Assembly (NCBI GenBank): GCA_965645245.1
Contig: OZ287079.1
Span: 310,001-374,000 of the forward strand
Source of the DNA: Massalongia carnosa
Lineage: Eukaryota
Length of the DNA: 64,000 bases
Reading direction: 5' to 3'
Positions 11,032 to 48,824 of this stretch are shown piece after piece. Within the stretch, counting starts at the first letter, position 1. Each line of letters opens with the position of its first letter. Both the position numbers and the translations under genes were made by a program. Below the pieces are notes generated by a model. The model saw only the letters and a program-made list of their open reading frames with translations, was not told the DNA's origin and did not search any database.

Positions 11032-11218
11032 TGTTGATGTTACGCTAAACATTAGCCTAACGGACAAGTGTCAGGCAGTTGGTGACTGCTTGGCCGGAAT
11101 GGGCCTAGGGTAGTTTAGCCGATGTGGGTGCTCAAAAGCACCCACGATAGAATTAATCAAAACTATTCCTTCTAAATATTCGTACATGCACTATAGTGAT
11201 CAACAATTCACTTCAACA
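11032..11218 (+). repeat. 5' LTR of Copia element
   Basis: TGTTGATG...CTTCAACA direct repeat of 17544-17730. Confidence 0.95.
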
Positions 11219-14200
11219 GGTTATGAGAACCCGGATGCGTACCTGCATTATAATTACATAGTCACTACGAATATATTCTAATCAGGTAACCGACCAACCA
11301 GTCAGCGTTCCTGCGACCCCAAACAAGCAAATAGTCGACCAGCCAGTCAACTTTTGCTTCGACCCCCCACCAAACGGTGCAGACGCACCAGATCGACCAG
11401 ACCCGACCGAACCAATCATATTTCAGTACCGCAGCCATGGGATCTGATGCAAAGTATGATTATAGCTTTAAAAAGCTGACCGGTTCAACCAATTACAAGC
11501 AATGGACTCGCGACATGTCTTTTGCATTGGAGGAAGCTAAGCTATGGGACCATGTTCTAGGAACGGCTATTCCACCTCCAAGATTGGTAGCGACCACAAA
11601 TGATGATGAAGAAAGGGCCGAACGAATTTACCAGCGGTCCCTAAAAATCAAAGACTTCAACGATGACTCGCGCCGTACGGTAGCAAAAATTGGGCGAATG
11701 TGCACCGAGACCGTCCAGAAAGAATTCCTATCCAAAAACACACTCGCTAGATGGACTCCAAAAGAGCTATGGGACCACCTACAATCGCGATACACGTTAC
11801 AAAATTGGGCATCAAAATGGAATACACTCGGAAAGTTGCACTCCATCCACCAACGGGACTGCAAGAACGTGGCCGAGTTCATCAGTAAAATTATGGACAT
11901 TAATTCTGAAATAAGTGACCTAAAAATAACCATGGACGAGGCGGTCATAATTCATACCCTAAATTCATTAGACACTCAGTTCAAGTCCTACCTGGCCATC
12001 CTCAGCCATGAGTCGAGGGAGAAAGCAGAACTTCCAACACTCGAGGTCCTAGCAAAGGCCTTGGAGGATGAAGAGTTACGACTAGCCAATCAGGACAAAG
12101 CAACCGCGAACTACACGCAGAAAGGAAAGAAAGGTGGGGACTCCGGTAAAAAGAAAAAGCCGGGGGAGAACTCCAACTCCAACTCCAATAACACTTCCGA
12201 CAGCAAAGACACATATGTCTGCACCAGGTGCAAGAAAACGCATGGAAAAGGTGATTGCTGGATGGACAAAGCGGAGTGTAATGGGTGTGGTAAACGTGGC
12301 CACATCAAGAAGTTCTGTAAAAAGAACAAGACGAACCAGGAAAGTGAGGTGACCACCCCAGAGGCAACCACCAAAGGGCTATCTTGCTTTATCAGAAAGA
12401 TCATACCGATCACACCGACCAATGAGGTCGAAGAGAAGAAAGGAATGGGGGCCATTCATTTGACGTGTAAGTCAGTGGCCGCAGTCATTCCAAAACTAAA
12501 CCCCTACGTAATCATAGACTCTGGGGCCACCGACCATTTCTTCTCAAACCGAGGCTTTTTTACCACCTACACTGAGTACTACCATGAGTTCCAAACGGGC
12601 TCGGGGCAAGTTCTTCCTGCCTTCGGGTATGGTGACGTAGTCCTAAACATGGTCCAGGAGGATGGATCAATAAATGTCCTGACAGTAAAAGATGTAAGCT
12701 GGGCACCTGCCCTAGGCCACAACTTACTGAGCACCGTTCCCCTTGCAATGAAAGGTGTTGAGGTGTTCCTGAGACGTACGGATGTTCCTACTCAATTAAT
12801 TCATGAGAACAAAATCCACGGACTAGCTGACGTTATCAATCGACAATATGTTCTTCGAATTAAAAACCCGGAGATTATGCAGACGAACTTCGCAAACACT
12901 AAACCAGTAGTGAATGCAATTAAACCAACCATTGAAATTTGGCATCAAAGAATGGGCCACCTTGGTTATCGAAACATCCTCAAACTTCCACAAATAGCTG
13001 AAGGAATTGAGGTGAAAGGGCCGGTCCCAGAGGAAATTTGTGGGCCCTGCATGAAGGGTAGACAGCAACGTAAGCCGTCACGAACTCCCATGCCCCGAGC
13101 TTCAAAATTCCTGGAAGAGGTCCATAGTGATTTGGGAGGCCCATACCCGGCCTCCAGAAACGGGTTACAATACTACATATCTTTCAAAGACGATGCCACT
13201 GGAACGTACCATGTTTATCCAATGAAGCTAAAGAGCCAGGCCTTTGAGAAGGCAAAGGAATATATCGAATGGACGTCTCAGGAAACTGGCATGCAGATGG
13301 GAGCACTCCATTCGGATGGGGGAGGTGAATATGACAATGAAGCCTTTCAGGACTATCTTAAGAAACAACACATCAGATGGAAATGCAGTGCCCCATACAC
13401 ACCCGAGCAAAATGGAAAGGCCGAGCGACTGAATTATACTCTGATGAGTTCAGTTCGGTCCATCTTATCAGCGATGAAATTACCGAAGGGCCTATGGCCT
13501 GAAATCATCAAAGCAGTGTGTTATCTGAAGAACAGAAGTCCTAACACGGACGGGGTGACACCATATGAGAAACTAAACAACAAAAAGCCTAACCTCGGTC
13601 ATCTAAGAGTGTTGGATGCACGCGCTTGGGTTCATATTCCCAAGGAAAAGCGAAAGAAGCTAGACGAACGGTCCTGGCAGGGCATCCATGTGGGCTATGA
13701 AGGCACCAATCAGTACCGGATATATGACCCCTGCACAGGCAAAGTTCATGTTACTAGAGACGTAACTATTGATGAAAAGAACCTATTTGACCGGAAAGCC
13801 TACAGATCAAACGAGCTTGTTGATGACGAATGGGCACAAACAGACGATGATCAGTTCGGAAATCCAGACGATTTTGACGACGAGGGAAATAACAAACCCG
13901 AGGACTATTACACCCCTCGGTCAAATAAACCTCACCTACCTACACCCCCCGATTCTCCTCCAAACACGGAACATTCACACCAAAATTCAGTGGGAGATTC
14001 ACAACAAACAAGGCCAGAAGGGAGAAATGTCGAAGAAAATTATGGAGGGGGAAATTATGATAGTCCCTATAAGGCCGAAATTGAATCTCATACCGAAAAT
14101 GGCACGTGGGAGTTGACCGAAGCACCAAAAGACCGACGGGTAATCACCGGACGGTGGGTGTTCAAACTGAAAAAGGATCGACATGGAAATATCCTAAAAT

Positions 14201-15426
14201 ACAAAGCACGATGGGTGGTTCATGGCTACAAGCAGGAAGAAGGTCTAGACTACATCGACACCTTCGCTGCAGTAGTCAAGCCCATGTCATATAAGGCCAT
14301 GATGGGTGTAGGAGTTAAACATGGATTTACCATTCGTCATATGGATGTTGTGACCGCTTTTCTCTATGGATATCTGGATGAACTGATATTTGTCGAACAA
14401 CCTCATTTATTCAACCCGACACCGCACCTAGTTTGTAAGCTTATCAAAGCACTTTATGGACTGAAACAATCACCCCAAGTGTGGTACCAGACCCTTGTTG
14501 ATTTCCTGAAGAAACTAGGATTTCATCGCTTGGAACTTGATCATGGAGTGTTTGTTTCTGATGACAAGAAGCAATTCATAGCGATATATGTGGACGACCT
14601 ACTACTCTTTGGGGCAGACATACCCCGCCTCGAGTTCATACAAAAACAACTATCTGATCGGTTCAAAATGACGAACCTGGGTGACGTCTCTCACTATTTA
14701 GGAATGGAAATTGACGTTGACGTTGGAAAAACAATAATCCTTCGTCAAACAACCTACCTCAAAAAGGTTCTGGACCGTTTCGGAATGACCGACTGCAAGC
14801 AATCCTCCATACCAATGGATCCGGGAGTAGCAAGCTCCCTTCTACCCTCAAAACAGGTGGCGGACAAAGCCACTGTGGCCTGGTATCAGTCAGCAATTGG
14901 GTCACTGATGTGGCCAGCAGTCCACACCCGACCCGATATCTCTTATTCTGTGGGAGTCCTCAGCCGCTATTGCAGCAACCCCGGACCCACCCACATACAG
15001 CTAGTCAAACAAATCTTCCGCTATTTAGCAGGGACACTGACCATAGGACTGACATTTTCGGCTGACTCTCCGGATGAACTAATCGGATACACTGATTCTG
15101 ATTGGGCGGGGACCGTAGATGGAAGAAAGTCGACCGGTGGGTACGTTTGGATGCTTTCGGGCTGTCCAATTTCTCACCAATCAAAACAACAACCGACCGT
15201 CGCTCTGTCTTCATGCGAAGCTGAGTATATGGCGATCACTGAAGCAGGGAAGGAGGCCTTATGGTGCTCTCGCTTCCTCGAGGCCCTCGGGCACAGACGA
15301 TCTGACCAACCAGCAGACCTCCGAGCAGACAACAAGGGGGCGATTGACCTTACCGCTAACCCAGAGTTCCATAAACGAACAAAGCATATTGACGTACGAC
15401 ATCATTGGATAAGGGAAGTTGTACTA

Positions 15427-17368
15427 ATCGTGCTAGACCACTTTCGGAATGCAGAGAGCACCCCTTAGTGCTTACCGGCTCAAAGACGCTACCGGCTCAA
15501 AGACGCATTTTTCAACACCTCAACATTAAAAAAATCAGACCTTCATGAAAAGACGTCCAAATAGCTTCATTTCGGGTTTAAAATCTACTGCTCAGTCTGT
15601 TCTACTAACAGGCCCTGCCCTAGTAAAAATCGGACGTTGTCTAACTGGGTTGATGAGGCCTTTTTCCCCTTATTAGCCTCCCTTTGTTCCTTTCGTCTAG
15701 CCTTTTCTTCCTCTTTTTTTTGACGAATTGAACATAATTCTCTACATTGACTGACTTTTATGACTCCACCCTTTGCAGCTACCTGACCCCCGAGAGCGGC
15801 CCGACTTTTACGCGATGTGGTGGCTTTTTGCACTTGCTGAAGGTCCCGCGTAGTCAAATCTAGGGTGTTGGCGGAGGTGATGGAGGCCCTAATAAATTTC
15901 TGAAAACCGTCCACTGTTTTTTTATCCATCCATCCACCGATCGGCCCGGCCGCGGTCAATGCCCTTTGCAATTTGTGACCGAATTTTCTGATTGATTCGG
16001 GGCCTCGAGGGGTGCGCTCATGAAATTGAAGAGGTAGGGGGCTCGGGGTGCGGGGTTCATTCCTAATTTCCAAGGCTGCAGCTTGCTTCTGACGAATGAC
16101 GTCGAGTACCATGTTCGGATTGAATGGGACGATGCCGGTAGTCCTGAATGCATGACGAATAGTAGATGATTTGAATGTCTTGTTGCGAAATTCCTGGAAT
16201 GCGGCTAAAAATTCCAATTTTCCAAATTCCGTGTCTCCCATTCGTATCGCATGATCAATGGCCTCAGCATGATAGTGTTTGTACGGCTGAAAAACACCTA
16301 CATCTAACGGCTGAGTCAAATGAGTAGAATGTGCTGGAAGACGAAATAGAACGATCTGATTTTCAGTGGCCAGCTTCAAAAACGGAATGGTTGAATGAGA
16401 CCCAAACCCGTCGATGACTAGAAGTAGCCAAGCTCCACGTCTTTTAGTCCGTGTATGCTCGATGAAATGACGAAGCCAATCCATGGCTAAATCGTCATTT
16501 GAATAGCCGGTCTCGCTGGTCCCAATCAACGTCTCTCCGTCGAGATCGTTGTGTTGACACCATTTATGAAGAATATGAATACCCGAAAGAATAAGTAATG
16601 GTGGAATAACGTCACCGGCCGAGCTGATACACTCTACAGAAGTAATGTAGTCACGATTATCCGGATCAGTCATACGAAGAGGCTTTCGTGGGTCCAAGGT
16701 GATTACTATTTGAGCTCGTCCGCATCCAATTCGAAAGCCTGTTTCGTCCATATTCCATACATCCAGCTCCGTTATTCCCTTTTCCCTCATCACCCTTTCT
16801 AATTTGCTGAAATATTCAACCATATCGTTAACGTCGTGACTATTTTTTCGATCGACTGCGAGAGGCTTCTGTTTTCGTACATGAAGCTCGGGATTTCGAT
16901 CAAGAAATCGCTTCAGCCACTGATGACCAAGAGTACGATTCTCAAAACGAATCAGATAATTTGCAGCCCCCACGATCAATTTGGGTCGCGCACACATGTT
17001 GGCCTTGTCCAATCGCTCGATGTAGTCACGAACAGCTTGTTCTTGCTCATCCGTCAGAGCTTTGTTGGTACTAGGTCGACTGCTTTTGGAGTTGCCTCCA
17101 TTCCATCGTTTTTGAACCGTACGAGGGGCAACGTCAAAAGCTATAGCTGCAGCTCGACAATTAGTATACAAACCATCATGTAACGCGTCAATTGCACTGT
17201 CAATTCGATCCTCGATAGCTGAATATGAATTGACCATTATGTTGTTGATTGTTGACGTGTCGAAGTTGAGGTGTAAAATGTTGAAAATGCGTCTTTGAGC
17301 CGGTAGCGTCTTTGAGCCGGTAAGCACTAAGGGGTGCTCTCTGCATTCCGAAAGTGGTCTAGCACGAT
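15427..17368 (-). mobile_element. Fot1/pogo-family DNA transposon, full length (1942 bp)
   Basis: Near-perfect ~90-bp TIRs (ATCGTGCTAGACCACTTTCGG...) with an internal direct repeat TACCGGCTCAAAGACGC x2, and a TA TSD on both sides. Confidence 0.97.
15585..17237 (-). CDS. pogo/Fot1 transposase (HTH-psq, CENP-B HTH, DDE_1), about 550 aa, intact
   Basis: Open frame from MVNSYSAIEDRI, with catalytic WNMDETG, LVIDGFGSH and QPLDVGVF. The longer ORF-track start lies outside the TIR. Confidence 0.93.
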   Translation of the reverse strand: MVNSYSAIEDRIDSAIDALHDGLYTNCRAAAIAFDVAPRTVQKRWNGGNSKSSRPSTNKALTDEQEQAVRDYIERLDKANMCARPKLIVGAANYLIRFENRTLGHQWLKRFLDRNPELHVRKQKPLAVDRKNSHDVNDMVEYFSKLERVMREKGITELDVWNMDETGFRIGCGRAQIVITLDPRKPLRMTDPDNRDYITSVECISSAGDVIPPLLILSGIHILHKWCQHNDLDGETLIGTSETGYSNDDLAMDWLRHFIEHTRTKRRGAWLLLVIDGFGSHSTIPFLKLATENQIVLFRLPAHSTHLTQPLDVGVFQPYKHYHAEAIDHAIRMGDTEFGKLEFLAAFQEFRNKTFKSSTIRHAFRTTGIVPFNPNMVLDVIRQKQAAALEIRNEPRTPSPLPLQFHERTPRGPESIRKFGHKLQRALTAAGPIGGWMDKKTVDGFQKFIRASITSANTLDLTTRDLQQVQKATTSRKSRAALGGQVAAKGGVIKVSQCRELCSIRQKKEEEKARRKEQREANKGKKASSTQLDNVRFLLGQGLLVEQTEQ

Positions 17369-17543
17369 TAGACCGAAAGATAATCATCACATACATTTCA
17401 ACGAATGAAATGATAGCAGATGGGATGACAAAGCCGCTACCACCAGCAAGGTTCCAGGCCTTTAGGGCCATGATAGGCATGAGGTAGGGCAGGGCAATTT
17501 CTGAATAGCATCAACCAAGGCAGACACCATGCCTGAGTGGGAG

Positions 17544-17730
17544 TGTTGATGTTACGCTAAACATTAGCCTAACGGACAAGTGTCAGGCAGTTGGTGGCTG
17601 CTTGGCCGGAATGGGCCTAGGGTAGTTTAGCCGATGTGGGTGCTCAAAAGCACCCACGATAGAATTAATCAAAACTATTCCTTCTAAATATTCGTACATG
17701 CACTATAGTGATCAACAATTCACTTCAACA
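17544..17730 (+). repeat. 3' LTR of Copia element, immediately upstream of the NLR gene
   Basis: Direct repeat of 11032-11218, followed by the GAATA TSD. Confidence 0.95.
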
Positions 17731-17772
17731 GAATATTGTATCGCTTGCTCTTCTAGGCACTCGAACTTCGTA

Positions 17773-20700
17773 ATGATATGCAGTAAAAGCATAGTCAAGG
17801 CCACAGGCCTTAACATCTGGGTCAATGGTAAGCAGGATCACCATGAACCCAGAGTCAAGTAAGTCAAACAACGCTTGATGAAATATAAACAGAATCACTG
17901 ACGGGTGTTTAAGCATCATCGCAGTTCAAGGTCTTGGTGCTCATCCATACTATACATGGATTGGGAAGCAAGCTTCTGTCAAAGGGGCGAGATCTAAACG
18001 TCGACGGCCACTTGATCTGTTACGAGGGCGCGGGAAGAATGCTCATGCTGACGGATTCCCGGAGATTGCTCAAACGGCATCGGAGGCTGTTGAAACAATG
18101 TGGCTTCGAGACCTCCTACCGAGCTGCGTTTCACATGCTCGAATTGCGACTTATAGTTATGAGTCGGATTGGCGAAAAGCGGATGTAAAAACGAGTTTGC
18201 GCAAATGTGGCGAGCAACTGCTCAACGTTCTTTATCAATGTCGATCAAGCGAGAAAGTTAGTAGTGTTATTCTAGACATTTATCCGATTCTGCTGAGAAT
18301 CTCGGCAGGAGTGTCGACGACCGCTGATCTTTGTCGGGCACAGTCTTGGTGGATTGATCATCAAACAGGTCGGTACGGCCTCGATTCTGGCCAACTTTTT
18401 CTGCACTAAAAACTTCATAGGCGCTGGTATTAGCCAATCACGGTGACGATTTCAGTAATATTCGATTGTCTACGGCTGGGATCATTTTTCTTGGAACACC
18501 ACATCACGGAAGTGATGCTGCGCTATATGGTGTATGGCTTGCTCTAGCAGTGGGCCATGATAGAAAATTACTGGAATCCTTGAAGAAAAACAGCCATGCC
18601 CTTTATGAGATTGCGCGGGATTTTGAGACCAGCTATCGTGATGCTGATATCGTATGCTTTTATGAAAGCAAAGAGGCGTCTTATGGACCTTGGAGGACGC
18701 AGGTATGTCCGCTTTAGTCTATACGCTTGACTGACTGAGTGTGAAAGCTTATGATAGACGTAGCTCGTTGATCAGCAATCAGCCACTTTGCACGGCAGAA
18801 GAATGATTTATCTGACCACGGATCACTCAGGGTTGAACAAGTTTTATGGTCTCGAAGATGAGAACTTCTGTTTGGTGCGGCCTGAGATTCAGCGAATGGT
18901 TCGGATAGCGCCTTCAAAGATCGAGGCACGATATCGATGTAAGGGCTTTTTCTTTATATCACTCGCTACGTCCACTGAAAGCCCTCTGACCTCTCGCAAG
19001 CGCATTCTATGATCAATGAAAAAGACTTTCGCATAGGTTTCAGTCTGCGAGATATCCCTATAGTGAGCAGATTCGTGACGCGGGATGCGGAGATGAACCG
19101 ATTAAGGGATGAGTTACTGCCCAGCTCAACGAATGAAATGCGTCGCAAAGTATTCGTCCTGCATGGACTTGGCGGGATCGGGAAGACTCAGCTGTCTGTG
19201 GAATTTGCTCGGCAACATCAAACGAGCTATAGTGCGGTCTTCTGGATCGATGGCTCGACCAAGGAAAGATTGAGGCGAAGTATTGCTGACCTCGCCGGTC
19301 GATTACCACCAGATCAACTTTCCGAAAGAGCCAAAAGCTATTCACAGGAGGAGAGTTCTAATGTTGATGAAGTCGTGAAGGAGGTGCTTAAGTGGTTATC
19401 TCAGCCCTCGAACAACCAATGGTTGCTGATTTTTGACAATGTGGATCGAGAATATTCGGCTTCATCGAGCGATTCGGAAGCCTTCGATGTGAAAAAGTAT
19501 TTTCCGGAGGCAGATCACGGATCGATTCTTGTCACTTCTCGACTCGCGAGCCTATGGCGGCTAGGACCCGATATAAAACTAGAGCCGATGAATGAATTGC
19601 AAGGAGGGAGCATTCTCATGAATAGTTTCGGAAAGTCTGTTGCAGGTGAGCGTACTTCGAACGCGGCTTTATTCAGACATTATCTGACCTGTGGAGCTCA
19701 ACAGGTGGGTCAGAAATTGTCAAATTATTGCAAGGTCTTCCGTTGGCGATCAATCAAGCCGGCTCGTACATGCGAGAAACAGGCACAAACGTGTCAGAGT
19801 ACATAAAGTTGTACGATCACGCATGGAGAAGACTGATGGCGTCGCGAGAAAATGCAGATCGTAGCGTTTTGACGACGTGGACGCTATCTTTTGATCATCT
19901 CCGGGCGCAAAGTGAGGAGGCGGCGAATCTCTTACTGTTATGGGCGTTTCTTGACAACCAAGACCTTTGGTATGGCCTTCTCGCACCTGCACTAAATCAG
20001 GGAATAGTCGATAAGATGCCTGATTGGTTTGCTAAATGTGCGGGTGACGAAGTTGATTTTAAGGAGTGCATGGGACTTCTTTTGAAACACTCCTTCATTG
20101 ACGTCAAAAGCGAGTCATCGTCGTTCTCTATGCATTCTGTTTTTCATCAATGGTGTTTTCATGCGTTTGAAGCAGATAAGGCTGTTATGAGCCAGCTTGC
20201 GGTGATAGTTGTAGCATCCGCTGTGCCTTCAGAAACCACGCCTCATTATACGCTTACACAAAGACGCCTTCTGCCACATTGCGATCGTGTTTTCTTGTTC
20301 GCGCAGCAAGGCATGCAAGGAAGATTGATCAATGAGATGAATGGTCAGTGGCAAAGTGATGCAGATCATCGGCTAGGAGGTTTATACTTGGATCAAGGCA
20401 AGATGAAAGAAGCCGAAGACATGTACTTGCGGGCATTGACAGGATACGAAAAGGCATGGGGTCCTGAGCACACATCGATGCTTAATACAGTCAACAATCT
20501 GGGAAATCTGTACTCGAATCAAGGCAAGATGAAAGAAGCCCAAGACATGTACTTGCGAGCATTGACAGGAAAGGAAAAGGCCTGGGGTCCTGAGCACACA
20601 TCGACACTCGATACAGTCAACAATCTAGGAAATCTGTACAAGAATCAAGGCAAGATGAAAGAAGCCGAAGACATGTACTTGCGAGCATTGACAGGAAAGG

Positions 20701-22334
20701 AAAAGGCCTGGGGTCCTGAGCACACATCGACACTCGGTACAGTCAACAATCTGGGACTTCTGTACAAGAATCAAGGCAAGATGAAAGAAGCCGAAGATAT
20801 GTACTTGCGAGCATTGACAGGATACGAAAAGGCTCGGGGTCCTGAGCACACATCGACACTCGATATAATCAACAATCTGGGACTTCTGTACTCGGATCAA
20901 GGCAAGATGAAAGAAGCCGAAGACATGTACTTGCGAGCATTGACAGGAAAGGAAAAGGCCTGGGGTCCTGAGCACACATCGACACTCGATATAATCAACA
21001 ATCTGGGACTTCTGTACTCGGATCAAGGCAAGATGAAAGAAGCCGAAGACATGTACTTGCGAGCATTGACAGGAAAGGAAAAGGCCTGGGGTCCTGAGCA
21101 CACATCGACACTCAATACAGTCAACAATCTGGGAATTCTGTACTCGAATCAAGGCAAGATGAAAGAAGCCGAAGACATGTACTTGCGAGCATTGACAGGA
21201 AAGGAAAAGGCCTGGGGTCCTGAGCACACATCGACACTCGATATAATCAACAATCTGGGACTTCTGTACTCGGATCAAGGCAAGATGAAAGAAGCCGAAG
21301 ACATGTACTTGCGAGCATTGACAGGAAAGGAAAAGGCCTGGGGTCCTGAGCACACATCGACACTCAATACAGTCAACAATCTGGGAATTCTGTACAAGAA
21401 TCAAGGCAAGATGAAAGAAGCCGAAGACATGTACTTGCGAGCATTAACAGGATACGAAAAGGCCTGGGGTCCTGAGCACACATCGACACTCAATACAGTC
21501 AACAATCTGGGAATTCTGTACTCGAATCAAGGCAAGATGAAAGAAGCCGAAGACATGTACTTGCGAGCATTGACAGGATACGAAAAGGCCTGGGGTCCTG
21601 AGCACACATCGACACTCGATACAGTCAACAATCTGGGAAATCTGTACAAGAGTCAAGGCAAGATGAAAGAAGCCGAAGACATGTACTTGCGAGCATTGAC
21701 AGGATACGAAAAGGCCTGGGGTCCTGAGCACACATCGACACTCGATACAGTCAACAATCTGGGACTTCTGTACTCGAATCAAGGCAAGATGAAAGAAGCC
21801 GAAGACATGTACTTGCGAGCATTGACAGGATACGAAAAGGCCTGGGGTCCTGAGCACACATCGACACTCAATACAGTCAAAAATCTGGGAAATCTGTACA
21901 AGAATCAAGGCAAGATGAAAGAAGCCGAAAACATGTACTTGCGAGCATTGACAGGATACGAAAAGGCCTGGGGTCCTGAGCATACATCGACACTCGGTAC
22001 AGTCAACAATCTGGGAAATCTGTACAAGAGTCAAGGCAAGATGAAAGAAGCCGAATACATGTACTTGCGAGCATTGACAGGATACGAAAAGGCCTGGAGT
22101 CTCGACCATAAAAAGCCACTTGATACGAGATATAATTTAGCTCTTATATATATAGAAAGATCACTTTTTACGAATGCAGCACAGCACTTGGACCTTGTCA
22201 TAGAAGGCTATACTAAAATATTAGGTCCCGAACATTGGGAGACGGTCGACGCCGTAAATCAGCTAGAAAAAATAACCAAAATAATAAAAGATATAGTCAG
22301 TAACGAAGAGGTGGAGGAAGAAAGGAGTAAATGA
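17773..22334 (+). CDS. Fungal NLR: SesB-like alpha/beta hydrolase + NB-ARC + TPR array. Predicted exons 17773-17858, 17914-18256, 18309-18368, 18421-18702, 18764-18938, 19001-19645, 19705-22334
   Basis: Six GT-AG introns splice into one frame: IIAVQGLG, MWLRDLLP, FVGHSLGG, FLGTPHHGS, DHSGLNKF, P-loop GLGGIGKT, Walker B LLIFDNVD, LVTSR, GLPLAI, MHSV, then TPRs. The start codon is the least certain part. Confidence 0.9.
20367..22130 (+). repeat. Coding tandem array of 14 x 126 bp (42-aa TPR units), followed by one degenerate capping repeat
   Basis: Unit NNLGxLYxxQGKMKEAEDMYLRALTGxEKAWGPEHTSTLxxx, near-identical at DNA level. Confidence 0.97.
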
Positions 22335-23402: not shown

Positions 23403-26400
23403 TGTGGGTTTACCCCAACTCGTGGCACCAGACGTATGACTACGTCAGTGCTTGAGTTAGATGGTAAAGTTTGTTCTATTAGCTAGTAGCGAGCGTGGGC
23501 TATATACATAGGCGTGTGCCCCTTTTCGGGGTCACGTGGCTGGCTAGGCGTCCCGTGCCTAATACGTGACGCGGGCCTTAATAGCCTCTAGTCGTGCCCA
23601 CAGCCCGTTCTATCTACTGGTGCTACTAACACTGGAACCACTTAGAAAAACGAAATAAACCCCCTCTATGCCTCGATGTTGGGTTGCATCTATGCCTGCT
23701 GTCCCCCTACGCCCGGCTTTGCTTGCCTGTGTGAGGCCTCACATAGCGTCTCACTCAACCCAACTCGCAACTGACATAGCACGGCCTCAGGTTCATTGAA
23801 CATCATCACCCTGCCTTCTTATTGCCGCCCTACAGCCTGATGCCCGTTCTACCCACTCGGTCGTATCTAGGTTGATGCGATTAGTATCAATCACCGTCTT
23901 GAGGGCCAAAGATGCCTTTGTCTTGGTCATGGAGTCGGCGGGGTTGTTGTGGCCATGAATCCATTTCACCTCGGTCACCTCACGTCTCTCTTGTATGACT
24001 GACGGAGACTCATGACATCAATCATTAAGCGTTTCTCCTGGGTCGTCCCGAGTTTTACTAAGCAGTCATATAGCGATTTTGAATCCGTGCAGAGAATCAG
24101 TGGAATGTCGGTTCCGAGAAGTTTGCTGAGGGTTGCCTTTATGACGGCCCCGATATCGAACCCATGTGCCATGCCATATAGCTCGGCGGAGTGGTCCATG
24201 ATAGCGTTCAACTAGACCGATGGAGTGATGCGCTTCGACGGGAACGTTTTTGACAATGATTCCCATGTTTGCAACATATTGTCGGAATTCCCTGGCCATG
24301 AACTGTTTGCCTGCATCGGCCGAGTTGAGGTCGGGGGGGCGGAGATAGGTATCGATCCAACATGCCCGTAGCTGATCCCATACATGTCTGGCCGAAATGT
24401 CCTTCAGCCACCGTCCTGCTTGAAATCGAGTTGCCTCGTCGACTAACTGCAGCACCGCCTTGCCTTCTATGTCGACGACAATGTGGTAATTAAATTCGAC
24501 GTCATCTTTTATGGTAAAACCGAACCTGCCTGGCGACTTTTCGTGCTTCTGACAATGGTGGCAATATTTAACGAGGTATTCTAGGGCTCGAAGGTCGACA
24601 TCATGACCTGATCGCTCGAGAATCTGATGTAGGCGCGAGACTGATGGGTGCCCGAAGCGACAATGTAGTCGACGGAGCTCGGTGGTAGTCAAGAAGCATG
24701 GATTTTCCGAGAATAATTCAATCGCGAGGGCATATGCAGATGTGCACCATAAAAGAAACGCATGACCATACCGGCGAATCACAGGATGAGTATGTTGGGC
24801 CTGAACAACTTGATTGGTTAGGTTATTGAAGAAGGCACCTAGCTTGTCCATGTCGGCGAGGCAGAGGAGAAACGGCGTATTGACTCGTACGATATGAAAG
24901 ACGATTCTTCCTATGGGGGTATTCAGGTTGACCGTGCCGATTGAAGACGTACTACCGATGCCAAAGACGAAATTGCTGACCCAGCCGTTGTCTCGTCGAG
25001 TTTTATCGAGATGATCTTCTGCAAGGCCTTTAGCTGCCCAATGCCACCGGTTGACCGAGTTGCAGCACCGGAATCGATCAGTAGCCCTTTAAATTCGGAC
25101 TCGTCGTAGCGATTGTCGGTTGACGTGATAAAACTGTAGGGCACTGAGACGGGGGCGATGGTATTGTCTGACCAAGATAAGCGATGTTCGAAGGCCTTAT
25201 TGGTCAGCATGTTGATCGCATTAATAGACTCAACTGCATGAAGGGTGCCAATCGAGGTATGAAACATCTCGGTAGCGACCTCTGCATCAAGAGAAGGGTC
25301 CTTTGCCTCGATAGACAGGTCTCCGAAAAAGTGAGCTATTTCGTCTTCATCTTCATCATCATCATCGCCCTCATAATGAGCGATGTATTGACGAAGATTG
25401 CGTTGATAGCCTGAGCGATTTTTGTACTTGGGATGCCTATCTCCCCAGCGCTTCTTGGAGTCCTCCTGTTCTTTCGATGAGTGATTCGTTGACCAGCATC
25501 CTTCTTCGTCGCATACGAAGCAGCGTTTTCGACGCATTGGGCCACGAGACGGGTTTCGAGACTGGTTTCGAGATGAATAGCTTGATCGGTTGAAACGTTG
25601 TCCGCCACGAGAGCGAGGGTTGAAACCGCCTCGGCGATACTGCCGATCAGTGAAGAAAGACTCCTCATCGTCCTCATTCTCGCCTAGATAGCTCCCCTGC
25701 GCGGACTAATGCACCGCTTCGTAATTGACGATTGAGGCATAGAGGTTATTGACCAATCCTGGTGTGTCCTGTGGTGGATTTGTTAAACCGGCCGCGAGTG
25801 CTGGGTGACCTCTACAGGCCCGAATGATGTTTTCTCGCAGATGAATTGACCCGTGGTATGCCATGTTGATGCCTCGTTGTATCGTGTCCAGCTCGGTGCA
25901 TAGCTTTCTGAGACACTCGGTTGTCGACAGCGAGGGGTTGGCCGAGATAACATCGTTTAGGGAGATAATTTGCCACTTTGTCAGATTGTAGCGTTCCCAC
26001 TCGGGCCCTTCAAAGAATGTCCTCATGTTTTGACAGAAATCATCAAACGACGCCGCGGAACCTCGATTTGCATAGTAATGAGTCAATGCCTGACCAGAAA
26101 GCATAATCGAGGCTTCGTAAATGAACGCGATATGAGGTAGTCCGACTCGCCTGCATTTGTCGAGGAATATGGTGAGTTTGAAACCGAAATTGTCGCCCGT
26201 GCCACTAAACTTGTCGTTATCCTTGTAGATTTTCTCTAGCAGAGTCAATTCCTTGGCGTATCGATTGGTCGAGTTCTCCTGAAATTGATGATAAGGCGTT
26301 TGATGCGATGATTGACTCGGAGGTAGTTGTTACGAGATCTGCTGAGTAAATTGTGGGGAGTGCGACGCGAGGGGTGCCTGAGGTATGTACGGATTTGGTG

Positions 26401-30252: not shown

Positions 30253-31721
30253 TAATCGTCGGCTCGCTTACCTCCGGGATCCGACTTGAAAAAATGTCGA
30301 CCGCATTTTAGTCGGGGAAAGCGGTTGCATCCCGGAAAGCGGTTGCATCCCGGAAAGCGGTTGCATCCCGGAAAGCGGTTGCATCCCCTCAAATTCAAAT
30401 TTCTTCATCTTTTTGATCATTGACCAACAACCACATTGATTAAAAATCTGCCGATACCGTACATAGCTTGAAAATCATCGCCGTCATCATCACCGTCGTC
30501 AAAAACATTTCCCTTGAACCCCCCTGACCCCCTGACCTTCGTGATTCTCCGCTTACTCCGCATACCCCGCATGCCCCGCATTCTACCAATCATTCGCATC
30601 TCCTGGTTGAAAAGATGCTTTCAAATCGAATTCTTTCAATGATTCTTCCAAATCGAAAGATACGAAATCATCTCGTTGCCATGTTTCTTCTTCTGGAAGA
30701 TCTGGAAGGATTGAATTATCTCCATGACCAGTGCTATCTACGATAAACGTGACATCTTCCTATTGACATTAGCACGCGGATTCTTTCTAATTTCCTTCTT
30801 CGCTTCCTCAACTATCCATACCTCATTCGTGGCCTTCCATAATGCCTCGGAGTCAGGAATCTTCTCATACATCTCAATTGGAATGGGACCGAGCATTTTC
30901 TGCATTTCTTTCAGCTGTTTGACTCGATCTCTTTCTGCTTTTCGAGCAGCCAATCCCTTGACATGCATTTCGTCTCTTTCTATTCGCCATAGCTTCAAAA
31001 AGCTATTATTCGCTCGTTTCTCCTCAGCCTCTTGATCCTGTTGTAGTCTGATGGCTATAACCTGCTTTGCATCTTCCGTTGTGATTCTCAATCTTCCGGT
31101 TTCTGGTCTCAGACGTTTACGAGACATTTGTTCTGGTCGAGGCATGAAATTTTTTTTTTTCATGAATCAACTACGTTACTTTATGAATAAGCCGGTTCTT
31201 TTGTAAACTGACCGGCCATTCATAAATGGACGTCTATTTATGAATGACCCAGTTTATTGATGAAAACATGACTCGACTAACTGCCGCTTTTAAAAAGATG
31301 CATTGCATTGCATCTGCCTGGATCTAGCTGTATGTCAAGGACTGGGTTGGGATTGAACTAATATTTCTAGAATTGGATTGGGTGATCAAGATGTCTTTAT
31401 TAATGAAGCTATAGCTAGGGGATGGTTTGCTACACCAGACGTCGGACGAGGAGTCAACTATCTACTGGATATGTCCTCTTTTTATACCTGAGCCAGCCCC
31501 TTCTTTCTCATGTTTTACCTTCACCCTAGATGAGAGATTTGGTGATAGTGGCGACGATAAGGTGGAGCGATAAGTGAGCCAGTGGATGTGATAAGATTGG
31601 TGGAGTGGAGTAAGGGGGTTGTTTATTTAGACTCATACCGAGGATGAATCTGAATAGGCTTTCAGGTGGCTTTTACCTCGATCGCCGCTTGGCGATTCCG
31701 GGTAATCAATTAGGTTTTAAC

Positions 31722-34700
31722 TCAAACTTTGATTTCATGACAGTAGCTCCCCCTTCGAAGGCTGAGCTCCTGCGATTCTGGTTCAGTCATGACACTGACA
31801 TCGAGGAATGAGACAGGGATTATGTGAGGCCCTATGGCATGAGGGTAAGCTTCATGAAATTCATCGATTGCTTGCTGACAGTTTGTTAGCAGGTTAAAAG
31901 GTTCCCATGTCATAGGATGTCCTTTCCAACTCACAAGATATTTGAGGAGCGGTGGTTGATAACGTCGATCCGTCTTTGAGTTGAGAATACTGTTGACATA
32001 CCACTCGCGCTGACCGTCTGTACCGACTATAGGGTTTCGAGGTTCGTGAAGTTGGCCAGGAAGAGGATCGTCTGCATCGTGCTGCAGAAGGTTGACATGA
32101 AAAACGGGATGAACTTGTAGCGTGTCGGGAAGTTCAAGCTGAACGATAAGAGGATTGGAAAATACTTTGGTGACCCTATAGGGGCCGGCGTGTCGATCAT
32201 TCAGTTTGGCTGCCGGTCGGGCTGTCTGAATGTTTCGAGTATTTAACCAAACCATATCATCCACGAGATAGCGGGGGCACGGGCGACGATTCTCGTTGGC
32301 GGTGGCTTCGTAGGAGGCTTGTGCGATTAACATTTCGTCATGAAGATGAGTATCTACATCCTTCATCTTATCCACGAACTGATTAGCGGCAACTAGGTTG
32401 GCTCTTCCTTGAGCGGTCAGATCATTGGGTAGAGGTTCTTCGGGCTCGAATCCTACTCGAGGATGTTGTCCATGATTGGCTAGGAAGGGAGAAGCGAGGA
32501 TACTGGATGAGTCGGTGTTGTTGCTAGCGAATTCAGCACCTGGTAAGTACTGAGCCCAGTCGTCTTGCATATAATTGACATAAGCTCGAAGATAGTGCTC
32601 CATGGTCACATTAGCCCTTTCGGTTTGGCCGTCGGTTTCAGGGTGAAGGCTGGTTGATAGCCTAGCATCAATCTTAAGACGTTTACACATGAGTTCCCAG
32701 AAGTCGGAGGTGAACAGTGTGCCTCGATCAGAGGTCAAGACGTCGGGGAGTCCGTGTAATTTCCACACGTTCTGATAGAAGGAGTTGGCAGCTTCTTCTG
32801 CCTCCATGGAGGTGGTGGGGACAAAGTGTCGCATCTTGGAGAGACGGTCGATGAAGACCAGAACATATCGATAGGTGACACCCATGAAGGTACTAGGAGG
32901 CAGTGGTCCTACATAGTCTATAGAAACATCACGCCATCGACGTTCAGGCGGGGATAGAGGACGCAGCCAGCCTTGATATCGCTGACGGGACGGTTTGGAT
33001 CGCTTACAGGTGTGACAGTTGCGAATGAATCTTTTTACGGTTTGATGCATATTGGGCCACCAGTACGATCGACTCATCAACTCATAACACTTGGAGCGGC
33101 CAGGATGACCACCCGCTACACTGTCGTGGGCATGCTGGATGAGACGAAGTCTCAGGCGATCTGACTTGGGTACGTACTTGCCGTCGCGAAAATAAAGAAC
33201 TCCATCTCTATTCTCATACTCGGCTAGCTGAATTTTCGGATGATGACGGACGTTGTCATGGAGTGCGTCTAGGAGTTTTGATGCGAATTGATCTGGAAGT
33301 TGAGCCTGTTCCCATAACAGTTGAGTGGGGACATCTAGAGGGTCTTGATCGGGATCGACTTGATCGGTAGGTTGATCCAACTGGGGTTCGTCAGCTCGGT
33401 CGGGTTCGATGAGCTCGGGATCGGGTTCAATGAACTCGGGGTCGTGTTCGATGGACGCAGGGGCTAGCATTATGGTGGAGAGGAAGCTTGCTGCAACTTT
33501 ATCATCTAGGTTGTGAGTTTTCAGTATGGTTTGATGCTGGTATTTTTGTCTTTCGTCGGTTTCATCCCCCTCTTTAGGGAGATCTCCTGATCGACGAGTT
33601 AATGCATCTGGCTTTCCTCCAGCTTTTCCGGGTCGATAGACTATTTTAAAGTCAAAACGAGACAAGAATTCAGACCAACGGGCCTGTCTGCGACTGAGTT
33701 GCTTGGTGGAAGAGAAGTATTCCAAGTTTTTATGGTCTGAAATTACGCTAATGGGAAAAGCAGAGCCTTCCAACTCGGGTCTCCATTCTTCAAAGCAACA
33801 GACGATGGCCATTAACTCTTTGTCGTAGATCTCGTAGTTGCATTCGGCCGGATTGTGTTTTTTGGAGAATTAGGCGATGGGGCGCAGCACGTTTTCATCA
33901 TCATATTGCGAGAGAATACCAGCGGAGACATAATCGGAAGCGTCAGTTTCGACGATGATGGGTTTGTCAGGGTTGAAATGCATAAGCACTTTTTCGGAGG
34001 TAAAAGCCTTTTTGAGAGTATTGAAAACTTGCTGACATTGATCAGTCCAGTTGAACTCGACTTCCTTCTTGGTTAGATTCGTTAGTAGACTGGCTATATT
34101 ACTGAAGCCATAGATGAATCTTCTATAGAAGTTAGCGAATCCCAAAAAGCTTTGAACATCCTTCATGTTGATCGGGGTTGGCCAGTTGGTAACGGTTTCG
34201 ACTCTGGCAGGATCTATTCTGATACCCTTGGTGGTTACGATTAATCCTAGATATGCAACCTCTTTAACATGGAATTTGGATTTGGTAATGTCGCATTGTA
34301 GCCCGTTTTCTATCAATTTGTTGAGAACTCTTCTGACATGAATCTCGTGTTCGCCTTCGATTTCACTATAGATGAGGATATCATCGAGATAGGCTGTACA
34401 GAAATCGTCAAGAAACTCTCGAAGAATGTCGTTGATGAAATGTTGAAAAGAGGCGGGTCCGTTGCACAGACCGAAAGGCAAGACCAGGGATTCGAATAGG
34501 CCGAAACGAGTTCGAAAGGCGGTGAGTTCCTCATCCCCCTCTTTGATTCGAAGGCGATTAAAGGCTGCAATGATATCTAACTTGGTGAATATCTTGGCCC
34601 TGGCTAATCGATGCAGGGTTTCAGCAATCAGGGGAAGTGGATATCGATTTTTTACGGTGACTGCATTGAGACCTCGATAGTCCACGCAAAAGCGAAGTCC

Positions 34701-36147
34701 TCCTCCCGGCTTTTTTACGAACATAACCGGGGACGTGGCGGGCGATTTGCTCGCTCGAATGAAACCTTTAGCCAGGTTCTCATCCAGATAGCGACGAAGT
34801 TCTTGAATTTCATCACGGCTCATGCCGTAAAGAGCTTGATTGGGTACCTGAAAGCCTTCTTTTAGCTTGATGGCATGGTCATAAGGTCGATGATCGGCTA
34901 AGACGTCAGAGTCTTTTTTGGAGAAGGCGTGCAATAGGTCGTGGTATTGCTTGGGCAGGAGGAGGGCTGGATCGACGTTTTTCTGCTTGCGATATTCGTC
35001 TAATTCTTGGGCGGTCACTGATGTCTGCAGTGTCAGGGCTTGGTTCATGCAAAACAGGGCTAGATGCTAGATGAAGTTCCTTTTCACTAGGACTGTGACG
35101 CGGGTTGGGTTAATAGGTTGGTTTTGGTTTATTCAGACTGCTATGGCGACTGAATTCGGTTGCAGATTGGATTTCGGTTTTGGGTTCGGTTGGGGTCACT
35201 CCGAGGAAGCGATCGATTTCTTTCAAGGAGAGGCTAAACATCTCGTGGTTTTCTTTGCGTCCGAGACGATTGAAGTTCATGGCGCTTATCTCGCAGATGT
35301 CCATGACTGAGGGTTTGATTTTTTGCTGAGCGGCGCGTCTTTCGACCGACGTTCGTTTGGAGGGGGGGCTTCGGTATCGAATTTTTGGTGGGTTGCCTTG
35401 TTCAATCGCTTACGGAGGTCTCCTGGCCGACGTTTTCGGGCGTGATTGTGATTGTTGAGGTTTCGATTGAGGCTGGATTTATGTCCTCGGATTTCCACAC
35501 CTCCTGACTTTCAGCAGGCGAAAGAAATTCTTCCTCAGTATGAGCTTGTACTTTGACCGGATGAGGACAGCAGTGAGCGAGGCAGAAAGGAGACGCCAAT
35601 GATAGAGAGTTGGTGTTGAAATCGATATGGGCTTGATGCCGACGCAGCCACGGGTGTCCGAGAACAATGGGGTATGTTTTCAATCCAGTTACGAAGAGAA
35701 TCATTTTTCCGTGTGTCCGTTTAGATCCATGATTACTTCGGCCGCATGAGTGATGTTTCCAGTCAGGGCCGGCTGACCGTCAAACCCTTCGAGGCGTCGA
35801 GCGTATTTCAGAGGATGAAGAGGGATTTGATGAGTTTGCGCGAATTTCTTGTCAATGAATGCATAGCCGGATGCACCACAGTCAATCAAATTAAGAGTTT
35901 GAATTCGAGATCTACCGAGACGTAAAGTACATGAAACCACTAAGTGGCTATCTCTAAACGCCTCTTCAGACTCAAATTGCTCCAAAGCGGTTGCTGCAGA
36001 AAACCGAGTGTTTGATCGGAAGGGGGGAGAAAAAGAATTGGCTAGCAGACAAGAAGAAATGAGAAATGGTTCCTGCACGCGACGATGCGCAGGACCTAGG
36101 CTTTTGAGTCTTCGAGCTCGGAAATGGAGGTCGTATCTGATGAGCAA
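31722..36147 (-). pseudogene. Gypsy pol (protease, RT, RNase H, integrase, chromodomain) with frameshifts and one stop
   Basis: LIDCGA, YLDD, ETDASD, HPG..CHTC, GPY/F, and a chromodomain EWYVNSIL..YLVSWKG..TWEP. Frameshift at ~35703 and TAA at 33870. Confidence 0.92.
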
Positions 36148-48420: not shown

Positions 48421-48500
48421 GGGAGGCTATTTGTCTTCTTTCCTTCGTGACCTAGTCATAGTCTTAGTAGCTTTAGGAATCTCGATCCTATCTGTGGTTG

Positions 48501-48600
48501 TCTCGATTCTGTCCTGTCTCGATTCTGTCCTGTCTCGATTCTGTCCTGTCTCGATTCTGTCCTGTCTCGATTCTGTCCTGTCTCGATTCTGTCCTGTCTC
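48501..48600. repeat. 16-bp minisatellite TCTCGATTCTGTCCTG x6
   Basis: Perfect tandem copies. Confidence 0.95.
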
Positions 48601-48734: not shown

Positions 48735-48824
48735 TCGGCTACCAGCGGATTCGGCTACCAGCGGATCGGCTACCAGCGGATCGGCTACCAGCGGATCGGC
48801 TACCAGCGGATCGGCTACCAGCGG
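48735..48824. repeat. 15-bp minisatellite TCGGCTACCAGCGGA x6
   Basis: Near-perfect tandem copies. Confidence 0.95.

Follow-up and report, generated by a model that had tools for sequence, protein, structure and literature searches.

Fungal receptors built on near-identical repeats

Fungal NOD-like receptors (NLRs) with high internal conservation (HIC) of their repeats are associated with transposable elements and exchange TPR units, as described by Ament-Velasquez (2026). The HET-E / HET-D / HET-R receptors of Podospora undergo unit gain, loss, and shuffling as well as exchange between paralogs, according to Ament-Velasquez (2025, 2026). For Pa_2_10340, Dyrka (2014) reports a polymorphic repeat number (2 to more than 15 units) and positively selected and polymorphic sites that were modelled on the concave side. 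PLP-1 / HET-Z is described as the only functionally studied fungal NLR combining NB-ARC with TPRs; it binds incompatible SEC-9, requires its P-loop and lipase domain, and self-associates (PMC12881547). In the kinesin light chain KLC1, an Asn-Asn pair hydrogen-bonds the peptide backbone and the bound peptide lies extended across the groove (Pernigo 2018). NLR biology in lichen-forming fungi has been little studied, with no dedicated paper among the matches listed.

The gene described here lies in a 64,000-nucleotide stretch of Massalongia carnosa DNA (the window; assembly GCA_965645245.1, contig OZ287079.1, positions 310,001 to 374,000 of the forward strand, with all positions below counted from its first letter), and it is a member of the published HIC class (Dyrka 2014; Ament-Velasquez 2025, 2026). 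It resembles Pa_2_10340 in its three-part architecture and its highly conserved TPR units of the 42-residue type, but Pa_2_10340 belongs to another species and is not an ortholog, and polymorphism between isolates is known there whereas a single allele is at hand here. Near-identical 126-nt units and a few hypervariable codons are shared with HET-E / HET-D / HET-R, while those receptors differ in carrying WD40 beta-propeller repeats, a NACHT NOD, and a HET effector. Membership in the PLP-1 / HET-Z group is marked by a patatin domain and a linked polymorphic sec-9 gene; the N-terminus here is DUF676/sesB-like with no patatin match, and no sec-9-like partner adjoins the gene, whose neighbours are transposons, making PLP-1 a working model only. 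The closest solved fold by sequence is that of kinesin light chain KLC1/KLC2 (6FUZ, 6FV0, 3ZFW), which shares the 42-residue TPR and the Asn-Asn pair and whose described contacts sit at the positions that are hypervariable in the array. Kinesin light chain is, however, an animal cargo adaptor with six dissimilar repeats and lacks NB-ARC, internal conservation, and repeat shuffling. The best full-length relatives are three Lasallia pustulata proteins (P0009, P0069, and P0001) with a DUF676-type N-terminus, NB-ARC, and TPRs. In P0009, 13 of 13 units are conserved and the variable positions are 5, 8, 9, 27, and 40, all of which vary in the array too. These relatives are unannotated hypothetical proteins, their hydrolase lacks the 41-aa insertion noted below, and surface positions of helix B set the consensus of their units apart.

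The interpretation of the locus follows the standard reading in the literature (Dyrka 2014) and is right but not new, and the array is a clear but ordinary case of well-described receptor diversification in fungi. The region offers a clean, fully open example of a diversifiable receptor surface made from near-identical repeats, and it leaves current understanding unchanged. The best protein matches, together with the "lichen metagenome" labels of sequencing runs with a small share, suggest that the DNA is probably that of a lichen-forming ascomycete.

Gene structure and genomic setting

The gene occupies 17773..22334 on the plus strand and is modelled as seven exons separated by six introns on the same strand (17859-17913, 18257-18308, 18369-18420, 18703-18763, 18939-19000, and 19646-19713; 52-68 nt, all GT..AG), giving a single open reading frame of 1403 aa with its stop codon at 22332-22334. 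The splice sites are predictions from the sequence, and the modelled protein aligns colinearly with both P0009 (1281 aa at 54% identity) and P0087 (1220 aa at 41%). The best database matches to the gene are just 52-74% identical. Comparison of the gene with public contigs revealed a second haplotype, either a paralog or an allele and ~5% divergent, with indels located within introns 2 and 4.

The N-terminal domain (17914..18938, +) is a putative alpha/beta-hydrolase of the DUF676 / sesB-like type, an effector class assigned through homology to the DUF676-bearing part of P0009 and the GHSLGG elbow. A tblastn search with P0009 residues 46-233 matched the domain with a summed E of 6.7e-14, and DUF676 is recognised in P0009 itself across residues 51-194 (25.2 bits, cut-off 20.3), while single exons of the domain run directly on Pfam gave a sub-threshold DUF676 match (E=0.016). 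The hydrolase motifs are the GHSLGG nucleophile elbow at ~18336-18353, GTPHHG, and TDHSGLNKF. The domain also carries a basic insertion of 41 aa at about 17960-18095 that the homologs lack; an unspliced intron was rejected at this position, where only poor GTCAAA donors fit, and the insertion is read as coding. The NB-ARC nucleotide-binding domain follows at 19018..19645 (+; Pfam NB-ARC 25.5 bits, cut-off 23.5; AAA_16 35 bits, cut-off 32.6), its translation showing GLGGIGKT as Walker A, LLIFDNVD as Walker B, and a SILVTSR motif, and the exon after it carries GLPLAINQAG near 19740-19770. A helical linker (19714..20366, +) joins this domain to the repeats; it matches DUF7779 weakly (19.6 bits, cut-off 27) and does not resemble the repeats, since units -1 and 0 share 25-26% identity with the repeat consensus. 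The repeat array itself (20367..22130, +) consists of 14 in-frame units of 126 nt (42 aa) and is followed at 22131..22334 (+) by a degenerate 15th TPR, whose nucleotides match the core consensus at 40%, and then by a short acidic tail at the C-terminus that ends in the stop codon. Pfam detects the TPRs as TPR_10 (451 bits, E=1e-139, 15 stretches) and TPR_12 (437 bits), with profile positions 1-40 of the 42 in TPR_10 matched by the array. The scores for NB-ARC and TPR_10 and the homology of the N-terminus to the DUF676 region of P0009 bear out the original prediction of an NLR-type gene, and, judged by its sequence, the gene is an intact fungal NLR composed of a DUF676/sesB-like hydrolase, NB-ARC, and 42-residue TPRs.

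The open reading frames flanking the gene belong to copia, pogo-type, and gypsy elements. The copia retrotransposon spans 11032-17736, with 193-nt direct repeats at 11032-11224 and 17544-17736 that are 98% identical and an internal ORF containing gag, integrase, and RVT_2 domains. Its 3' LTR (17544..17736, +) stops 37 nt upstream of the predicted ATG, and expression of the gene may have been changed or abolished as a result. The 98% identity of the LTRs and the 100% identity of the 88-nt inverted ends of a nested transposon indicate that both insertions are recent, and a contig from organism C has no similarity upstream of 17747. These observations would suit a decaying or silenced gene, whose regulation was knocked out by the upstream insertion and whose array variation is a functionless relic. 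Such decay is nevertheless unlikely, given that the 1403-aa frame is fully open, the six introns are canonical, neither the catalytic motifs nor the P-loop are disrupted, the composition is not of the RIP type (TpA/ApT 0.51-0.54), and pN/pS outside the variable slots is 0.23. Additionally, LTRs can supply promoters, which counts against silencing.

Structure of the repeat array

The array had been described as 14 units that are almost invariant even at silent sites, and 14 in-frame units are indeed present in the register set by that description (20367+126i). Tandem Repeats Finder delimits the repeat at 20385-22101 (period 126, 13.6 copies, 94% matches, 0% indels), and a 51-nt core is found 14 times with at most one mismatch, compared with no occurrences in 100 shuffles of the sequence. 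The mean pairwise identity of units 2-13 (504 aa) is 94.6% for nucleotides and 89.4% for amino acids, which exceeds the threshold that defines HIC repeats, namely an identity above 85% among repeats across 100 aa or more (Dyrka 2014); units 6 and 8 are identical in nucleotide sequence. The Asn-Asn pair at unit positions 1-2 is nearly invariant (N1 in 12 and N2 in 13 of the 14 units). Outside the variable codons, identity to the consensus is 100% in units 5-8 and 10-12, falling to 87.6% in unit 1, 89.5% in unit 14, and 40% in unit 15, and this combination of a homogeneous centre with decayed edges is as expected from unequal exchange. The 126-nt period without indels, the TPR_10 signature, and a match to KLC1 at 1e-45 identify the units as 42-residue TPRs of the kinesin-light-chain type.

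Eleven distinct slot combinations occur among 13 cassettes, and all four gametes are present in 20 of 66 site pairs (Rm 3; the test treats related units as independent), in agreement with the claim that alleles recur in differing combinations. At positions 8 and 27, where the alternative codons differ by two bases each, all four pairings of alleles are present. A recent two-unit duplication or conversion was found at 20896..21395 (+), where 20896-21143 is identical in nucleotide sequence to 21148-21395 (248 nt, offset 252), the sole exact in-register tract of at least 200 nt returned by the search. The four-gamete failures, the 248-nt tract, and the homogeneous centre with decayed edges indicate recent unequal recombination; the array may also be "actively" recombining, as was originally proposed, and variable between isolates. 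No paralog was found within the 64-kb window, the sole outside match being a 32-nt piece of LTR. In public metagenome contigs, the 51-nt core had no matches, and 29 stretches matched by pattern to the linker protein were not upheld by tblastn.

The combinations would be partly an artefact if the contig were an assembly mosaic, in which the units are real but their number or order is the reconstruction of the assembler. HIC repeats in short-read assemblies can have units omitted, created, or chimerised, according to Ament-Velasquez (2025). The Logan contigs of four sequencing runs (X1, X2, X4, and X5) stop at 20413-20419 and start again at 22068-22071, covering parts of the array but never spanning it, and of the 3586 contigs in X1, 2973 can be placed at two positions, which leaves the order of the array without independent confirmation. 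However, a short-read assembly is expected to break at the array in the same manner as the Logan contigs, which points to a long-read assembly, and the array lies in a 64-kb stretch running through several transposons, and its period is exactly 126 nt, free of indels, with a single frame open across the 14 units. A mosaic origin of the array is quite unlikely. One difference at slot 9 was observed in X2 (position 21525), ambiguous since the contigs fit several units.

Variable positions within and between proteins

Across units 2-13, 21 of the 126 nucleotide columns are variable, and 12 of these fall in codons 5 (N/L/I), 8 (S/K), 9 (N/D/S), 27 (K/Y), 40 (D/N/G), 41 (T/I), and 42 (V/I), whereas the remaining nine are singletons (five synonymous and four nonsynonymous). 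All recurrent differences are confined to these seven codons and show an excess of amino-acid change, as the proposal of residue swaps at fixed slots requires. The per-codon check of nonsynonymous against synonymous differences that accompanied this proposal gave pN 0.32 and pS 0 in the seven codons, compared with pN 0.008 and pS 0.036 in the other 35, where the pN/pS of 0.23 indicates purifying selection. Nucleotide cells differing from the consensus number 41 of 180 in five slot codons that were defined from other proteins, versus 15 of 1332 elsewhere (nominal Fisher P 6e-28, the cells being non-independent). The unit alignment confirms both multi-base swaps (TCG/AAG and TAC/AAG), and the D-II...L-SD block occurs three times as stated (TPR 5, 6, and 8 of 13 cassettes). 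At position 27 the order YKKYKKKKYYYYYY, with K early and Y late, is also as claimed, but the gradient is not clearly beyond chance (runs test P=0.086). RIP was rejected as the overall source of the variation on the basis of the TpA/ApT composition. Among the nine private mutations, four are in CpA/TpG context (P=0.053), a weak hint of RIP only.

The same positions are variable in related proteins. A survey yielded 120 homologs, of which 107 have at least five conserved units, a sample biased in that it consists of the best matches to this same repeat. Within individual proteins among these 107 fungal NLR homologs, position 40 is variable in 100, position 5 in 98, position 27 in 95, position 8 in 91, and position 9 in 85, and the next most variable position reaches 46 of 107. 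These five family-wide slots all fall within the seven recurrent positions of the array (hypergeometric P=2.5e-5). Positions 41 (T/I) and 42 (V/I) are variable in merely 22 and 14 of the 107 homologs, respectively, and are not KLC1 contacts; positions 14, 18, 21, and 25 vary between homologs and not within one protein. Neutral recent amplification, with random mutation at tolerant surface positions and no diversifying selection, could by recent expansion explain the high identity, and nine private mutations outside the slots do resemble ordinary decay, but it is highly improbable when slot differences are ~9 times the silent divergence (pN 0.32 vs pS 0.036), include two-base swaps without intermediates that recur in shuffled combinations, and affect the same five positions at which 85-100 of the 107 homologs, which come from many fungi, show internal variation.

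Correspondence of the slots to ligand contacts

Two comparisons with TPR structure bear on the location of the slots. Positions 5-28 of the Pfam TPR_1 profile align to unit positions 1-24, and by this alignment the slots correspond to TPR positions 2, 9, 12, and 13, which Magliery and Regan (2005) describe as hypervariable, ligand-contacting positions of the concave face. Searches against the PDB matched the array to KLC1/KLC2 (1e-45, ungapped over five units) and to the 42-residue TPR-like Podospora entries 4Y6C/4Y6W (1e-15). The 15 KLC1 contact residues named by Pernigo (2018) translate to unit positions 1, 2, 5, 6, 8, 9, 13, 27, and 40, a groove mapping that relies on the ungapped alignment to KLC1 (the best-scoring matches) and on hand-derived numbering. 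All five family-wide slots align with KLC1 residues that touch cargo peptides in the crystal structures. The equation of slots with ligand-contact positions thereby finds its counterpart in a solved complex of 42-residue TPRs with a peptide, and by homology the slots probably lie on the ligand-binding face. The recurrence of five slots in nearly all homologous arrays and their match to KLC peptide contacts should generalise, and they provide a concrete target list for specificity-swap work.

Model of diversification and recognition

Every testable part of the earlier interpretation was supported, and the array is very probably the sensor domain of an intact HIC-class fungal NOD-like receptor, diversified at ligand-facing slots by unit exchange. 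Unequal crossing-over or gene conversion among the 126-nt units keeps the framework near-identical, silent sites included, and diversity persists at a small number of codons, among them the five family-wide hypervariable slots. Under this model, the invariant Asn-Asn at positions 1-2 and the slots of neighbouring repeats would together build a concave groove for the ligand, and gain, loss, or reshuffling of units would in turn alter the binding surface. Binding of the ligand would release oligomerisation of NB-ARC and the N-terminal lipase/esterase-like effector, presumably serving allorecognition or defence in the way that NLRs do elsewhere in fungi. A role as a "non-self sensor" is suggested by family membership, and, since neighbouring repeats form the pockets of KLC1, specificity may by analogy be set by the order of the units.

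The array of this receptor might also read an extended polypeptide in modular fashion, with Asn-Asn binding the backbone whatever its sequence, in the manner of the KLC1 Asn pairs, and the five slots reading successive side chains. Such a reader is favoured by the presence of N1 in 12 and N2 in 13 of the 14 units and by the extended course of the peptide across the KLC1 groove (Pernigo 2018). If true, the 13-14 cassettes, read in order, would represent a linear epitope, open in principle to decoding and re-programming from sequence, comparable to designed armadillo or TALE/PPR-type codes. The idea is nonetheless doubtful enough to count as a long shot, and a simple code is disfavoured because the slot alphabets of the homologs are broad (2.5-3.2 bits), coupling between slots is weak, and 813 of the 951 homolog cassettes are distinct, a diversity that led to the rejection of discrete "letters", by which the whole family would share a small set of cassette types.

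Gene model and domain architecture

The repeat array forms the 3' half of a single predicted gene on the plus strand, and the original prediction of an NLR carrying a TPR array agrees with the Pfam matches: TPR_10 in 15 stretches (451 bits) of the ORF 19650-22334, and NB-ARC (25.5 bits, cut-off 23.5) together with AAA_16 in the ORF 18979-19806. Pieces located 5' of the NB-ARC match the N-terminal region of P0009, a Lasallia pustulata protein among the best full-length relatives (tblastn, summed E 6.7e-14), and in that region Pfam scores a DUF676 putative serine esterase domain at 25.2 bits (cut-off 20.3); all Pfam hydrolase matches of the GHSLGG-bearing exon taken alone are sub-threshold. With six GT..AG introns of 52-68 nt, the predicted splicing leaves one reading frame open between the ATG at 17773 and the stop at 22332-22334 (1403 aa), and the encoded protein runs colinear with P0009 (54% identity, 1281 aa) and with P0087. 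Small indels of a second haplotype found in public sequencing runs (18279-18281 and 18744) lie within predicted introns 2 and 4, which is consistent with the six-intron model. The domain architecture is intact, and the gene is predicted to be spliced and expressed. The combination of a sesB-like/alpha-beta hydrolase, NB-ARC and TPR is listed among the common fungal NLR types (Dyrka 2014). The hydrolase domain also contains a 41-aa insertion (17960-18095) that is missing from the Lasallia homologs and carries a basic SKRRRP patch; since no good intron fits it, the insertion is probably a coding loop.

Repeat units, selection and exchange

Tandem Repeats Finder reports one array (20385-22101; period 126, 13.6 copies, 94% matches, 0 indels), and a search of the window for a 51-nt unit core, allowing up to one mismatch, gives 14 matches versus 0 in 100 shuffles. 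In the register 20367+126i, the array resolves into 14 units, each of 42 aa and all in frame, after which come a degenerate 15th unit and a short tail. The near-identity of these units, silent sites included, is borne out by mean identities of 94.6% (DNA) and 89.4% (protein) among units 2-13, with units 6 and 8 identical in DNA. Only 21 of the 126 nucleotide columns vary in units 2-13, and 12 of these fall within seven codons: 5 (N/L/I), 8 (S/K, TCG/AAG), 9 (N/D/S), 27 (K/Y, AAG/TAC), 40 (D/N/G), 41 (T/I) and 42 (V/I). The swaps at fixed slots that had been proposed, two of them multi-base (TCG/AAG and TAC/AAG), are therefore present, as are three occurrences of the D-II...L-SD block, and the remaining nine columns are singletons (five silent, four nonsilent). 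Position 27 reads YKKYKKKKYYYYYY along the array; the succession of K and then Y is as originally described, but its non-randomness is not clear (runs test P=0.086).

Nei-Gojobori counts for units 2-13 give pN 0.32 and pS 0 at the seven variable codons versus pN 0.008 and pS 0.036 (ratio 0.23) at the other 35, such that the difference at the slots is about nine times the silent-site difference. The latter values indicate a framework that is under purifying selection and homogenised even at silent sites. With the variable codons excluded, identity to the core consensus is 100% in units 5-8 and 10-12, 97-99% in units 2-4, 9 and 13, 87.6% in unit 1, 89.5% in unit 14 and 40% in unit 15, and this fall from the centre to the edges is the pattern that unequal exchange produces. 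A 248-nt tract (20896-21143) recurs exactly two units downstream (21148-21395), reflecting a recent two-unit duplication or conversion. When each TPR is read as a cassette that joins positions 40-42 of one unit to positions 1-9 and 27 of the following unit, the claim that alleles recur in different combinations holds, with 11 distinct combinations in 13 cassettes, all four gametes in 20 of 66 pairs of non-singleton sites, and a minimum of three exchanges (Rm), statistics that take related units as independent and are indicative only. All four combinations of positions 8 and 27, each a two-base swap, are present; exchange between units can account for this, recurrent mutation not easily. The units are thus homogenised with exchange between them, and diversity is kept at positions that, as placed by homology, would lie in the TPR groove.

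Of the nine private mutations that lie outside the variable codons, six are C>T or G>A changes, four of them in a CpA/TpG context (about 1.5 expected, P=0.053). This excess is a faint RIP-like trace; RIP composition is absent across the array region as a whole. On the minus strand (20625-22136), long ORFs of 272 and 230 aa cross the array in antisense; the simplest explanation is that a unit with a reverse frame open by chance has been repeated.

Variable positions across homologs and the TPR groove

An HMM built from units 2-13 was used to cut the 120 best homologs into units, and the 107 in which five or more units lay within 80% of the protein's own consensus were kept; as the best matches to the Massalongia repeat itself, they are a non-random sample. 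A position was considered variable within a protein when minor residues occurred in at least two units and at least 20% of units. By this measure, position 40 is variable in 100 of the 107 proteins, position 5 in 98, position 27 in 95, position 8 in 91 and position 9 in 85, followed by position 1 (46); positions 41 and 42 are variable in 22 and 14, respectively. The top five are all among the seven recurrent positions of the Massalongia gene (hypergeometric P=2.5e-5), and with slots defined from the other proteins, 41 of 180 nucleotide cells are off consensus in the slots versus 15 of 1332 elsewhere. Positions 14, 18, 21 and 25 are diverse between proteins (entropy 2.5-2.9 bits, 1228 units) but seldom variable within one of the 107 homologs, and behave as neutral surface sites, drifting from gene to gene but kept homogeneous inside each gene. 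The best protein matches, mostly from lichen-forming fungi (Lasallia, Sticta, Pseudocyphellaria), are only 52-74% identical, and the protein collection searched contained no ortholog.

Positions 5-28 of the Pfam TPR_1 profile align to ORF residues 324-347 (unit positions 1-24), placing the canonical TPR position at unit position + 4. Unit position 40 then corresponds to TPR position 2, unit position 1 to 5, unit position 2 to 6 (the classic Asn), and unit positions 5, 8 and 9 to 9, 12 and 13. Magliery and Regan report TPR positions 2, 5, 9, 12, 13, 33 and 34 as the most variable, all of them on the concave face, and ligand contacts in HOP through positions 2, 5, 6, 9, 12 and 13, where the Asn at position 6 binds the backbone of the peptide. 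The array also aligns without gaps to five repeats of kinesin light chain 1 (KLC1; E 1e-45), for which contact residues for the JIP1 and TorsinA peptides are named in Pernigo 2018 (chain index = paper residue number minus 20, matched by hand, with 15 of 15 checked residues in agreement). Unit position 1 matches the named contacts N259, N301 and N343; position 2, N302, N344 and N386; position 5, V305 and L347; position 6, L348; position 8, R266; position 9, K309 and N351; position 13, Y313; position 27, R327; and position 40, K340 (N469, beyond a gapped stretch of the alignment, was left out). By homology, all five family-wide slots therefore correspond to ligand-contact residues, and the nearly invariant NN pair of the array corresponds to the KLC1 asparagines that form hydrogen bonds with the main chain of the peptide. 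Positions 41 and 42 match none of the contacts named there; in this array neither changes without the other or without D40/L5/S8/D9, and both may simply travel with that cassette.

Relation to known fungal NLRs

Highly conserved TPR units represent about one fifth of the annotated TPR repeats in fungal NLRs, and the Podospora gene Pa_2_10340, which shares the architecture of the Massalongia gene, has from 2 to >15 units depending on the strain; a KLC2-based model placed those of its sites that are under positive selection or otherwise polymorphic on the concave side (Dyrka 2014). That study concluded that contraction, expansion or shuffling of units will alter the binding interface. According to Ament-Velasquez 2026, such genes are transposon-associated, always length-polymorphic, and swap TPR units between genes. 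The Massalongia gene is a further member, and a textbook case, of the phenomenon described by Dyrka 2014; the factual statements of the original prediction were all correct, and its interpretation of the array as a recombining, putative non-self sensor is supported. The one functionally studied relative, covered in a review (PMC12881547), is PLP-1/HET-Z (patatin/NB-ARC/TPR), which binds incompatible SEC-9, requires its P-loop and lipase domain, and self-associates. By analogy with the family, neighbouring cassettes would form a groove binding a protein or peptide ligand, binding would lift NB-ARC auto-inhibition, and oligomerisation would gather the N-terminal esterase/lipase-like domains, leading to a cell-death or defence response; candidate targets are conspecific non-self (incompatibility) or a foreign organism.

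Public sequencing runs and a second haplotype

Twelve public runs contain part of the gene, and four were compared, all as Logan contigs. In two samples of one source organism (A; runs X1 and X2), the contigs are a perfect match between 19623 and 20413/20419 and again from 22068/22071 on; no Logan contig in either run crosses the array, and many of the short ones can be placed on several units (X1: 2973 of 3586). Short-read assemblies of such arrays are known to be unreliable (Ament-Velasquez 2025). We infer that the genomic contig is long-read based because it spans several transposons and an unbroken 1.76-kb array.

Runs X1 and X2 also contain a second haplotype, ~5% divergent over 17768-19242 and at about half depth (e.g., 962/1838, 160/340). 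Run X5, from another source (organism C), has this haplotype alone at the positions listed; its 4716-nt contig shows 133 differences between 17747 and 20397. Candidate explanations for the second haplotype are a paralog, mixing of genotypes in the sample, and an old allele that is shared. The organism C contig lacks one base at 19787 in a coding exon (239/239 depth), a deletion that, if real, would shift the frame of that copy.

Transposons and other features of the window

A copia-type LTR retrotransposon (11032-17736) with 98% identical 193-nt LTRs (11032-11224 and 17544-17736) and a gag-integrase-RVT_2 ORF (11335-15468) ends 37 nt upstream of the NLR start codon. The organism C contig matches only from 17747 on, and the insertion therefore seems to be absent there. 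Nested in the copia element is a pogo/Tc5-type DNA transposon (15424-17371) with perfect 88-nt terminal inverted repeats and a minus-strand DDE_1 + HTH_Tnp_Tc5 ORF (15585-17510), probably a very recent insertion. Further elements, namely copia fragments, a gypsy element whose integrase has a chromodomain, one more DDE_1 and one more RVT_2, occupy 24066-25705, 31722-35066, 42756-43841, 59445-60416 and 62048-64000, and the sole ordinary gene noted in the rest of the window encodes a DUF7703 protein (1591-2727). This transposon richness fits the association of transposons with NLRs of high internal conservation reported in Ament-Velasquez 2026. Short perfect tandem runs of an 18-nt motif, GGAAAGCGGTTGCATCCC or its complement, occur at 30316-30387, 39015-39054, 52986-53020 and 55390-55425, probably at the termini of a repetitive element. 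Two other perfect tandem runs are present at 48499-48600 (16 nt, 6.4 copies) and 48735-48824 (15 nt, 5.9 copies).
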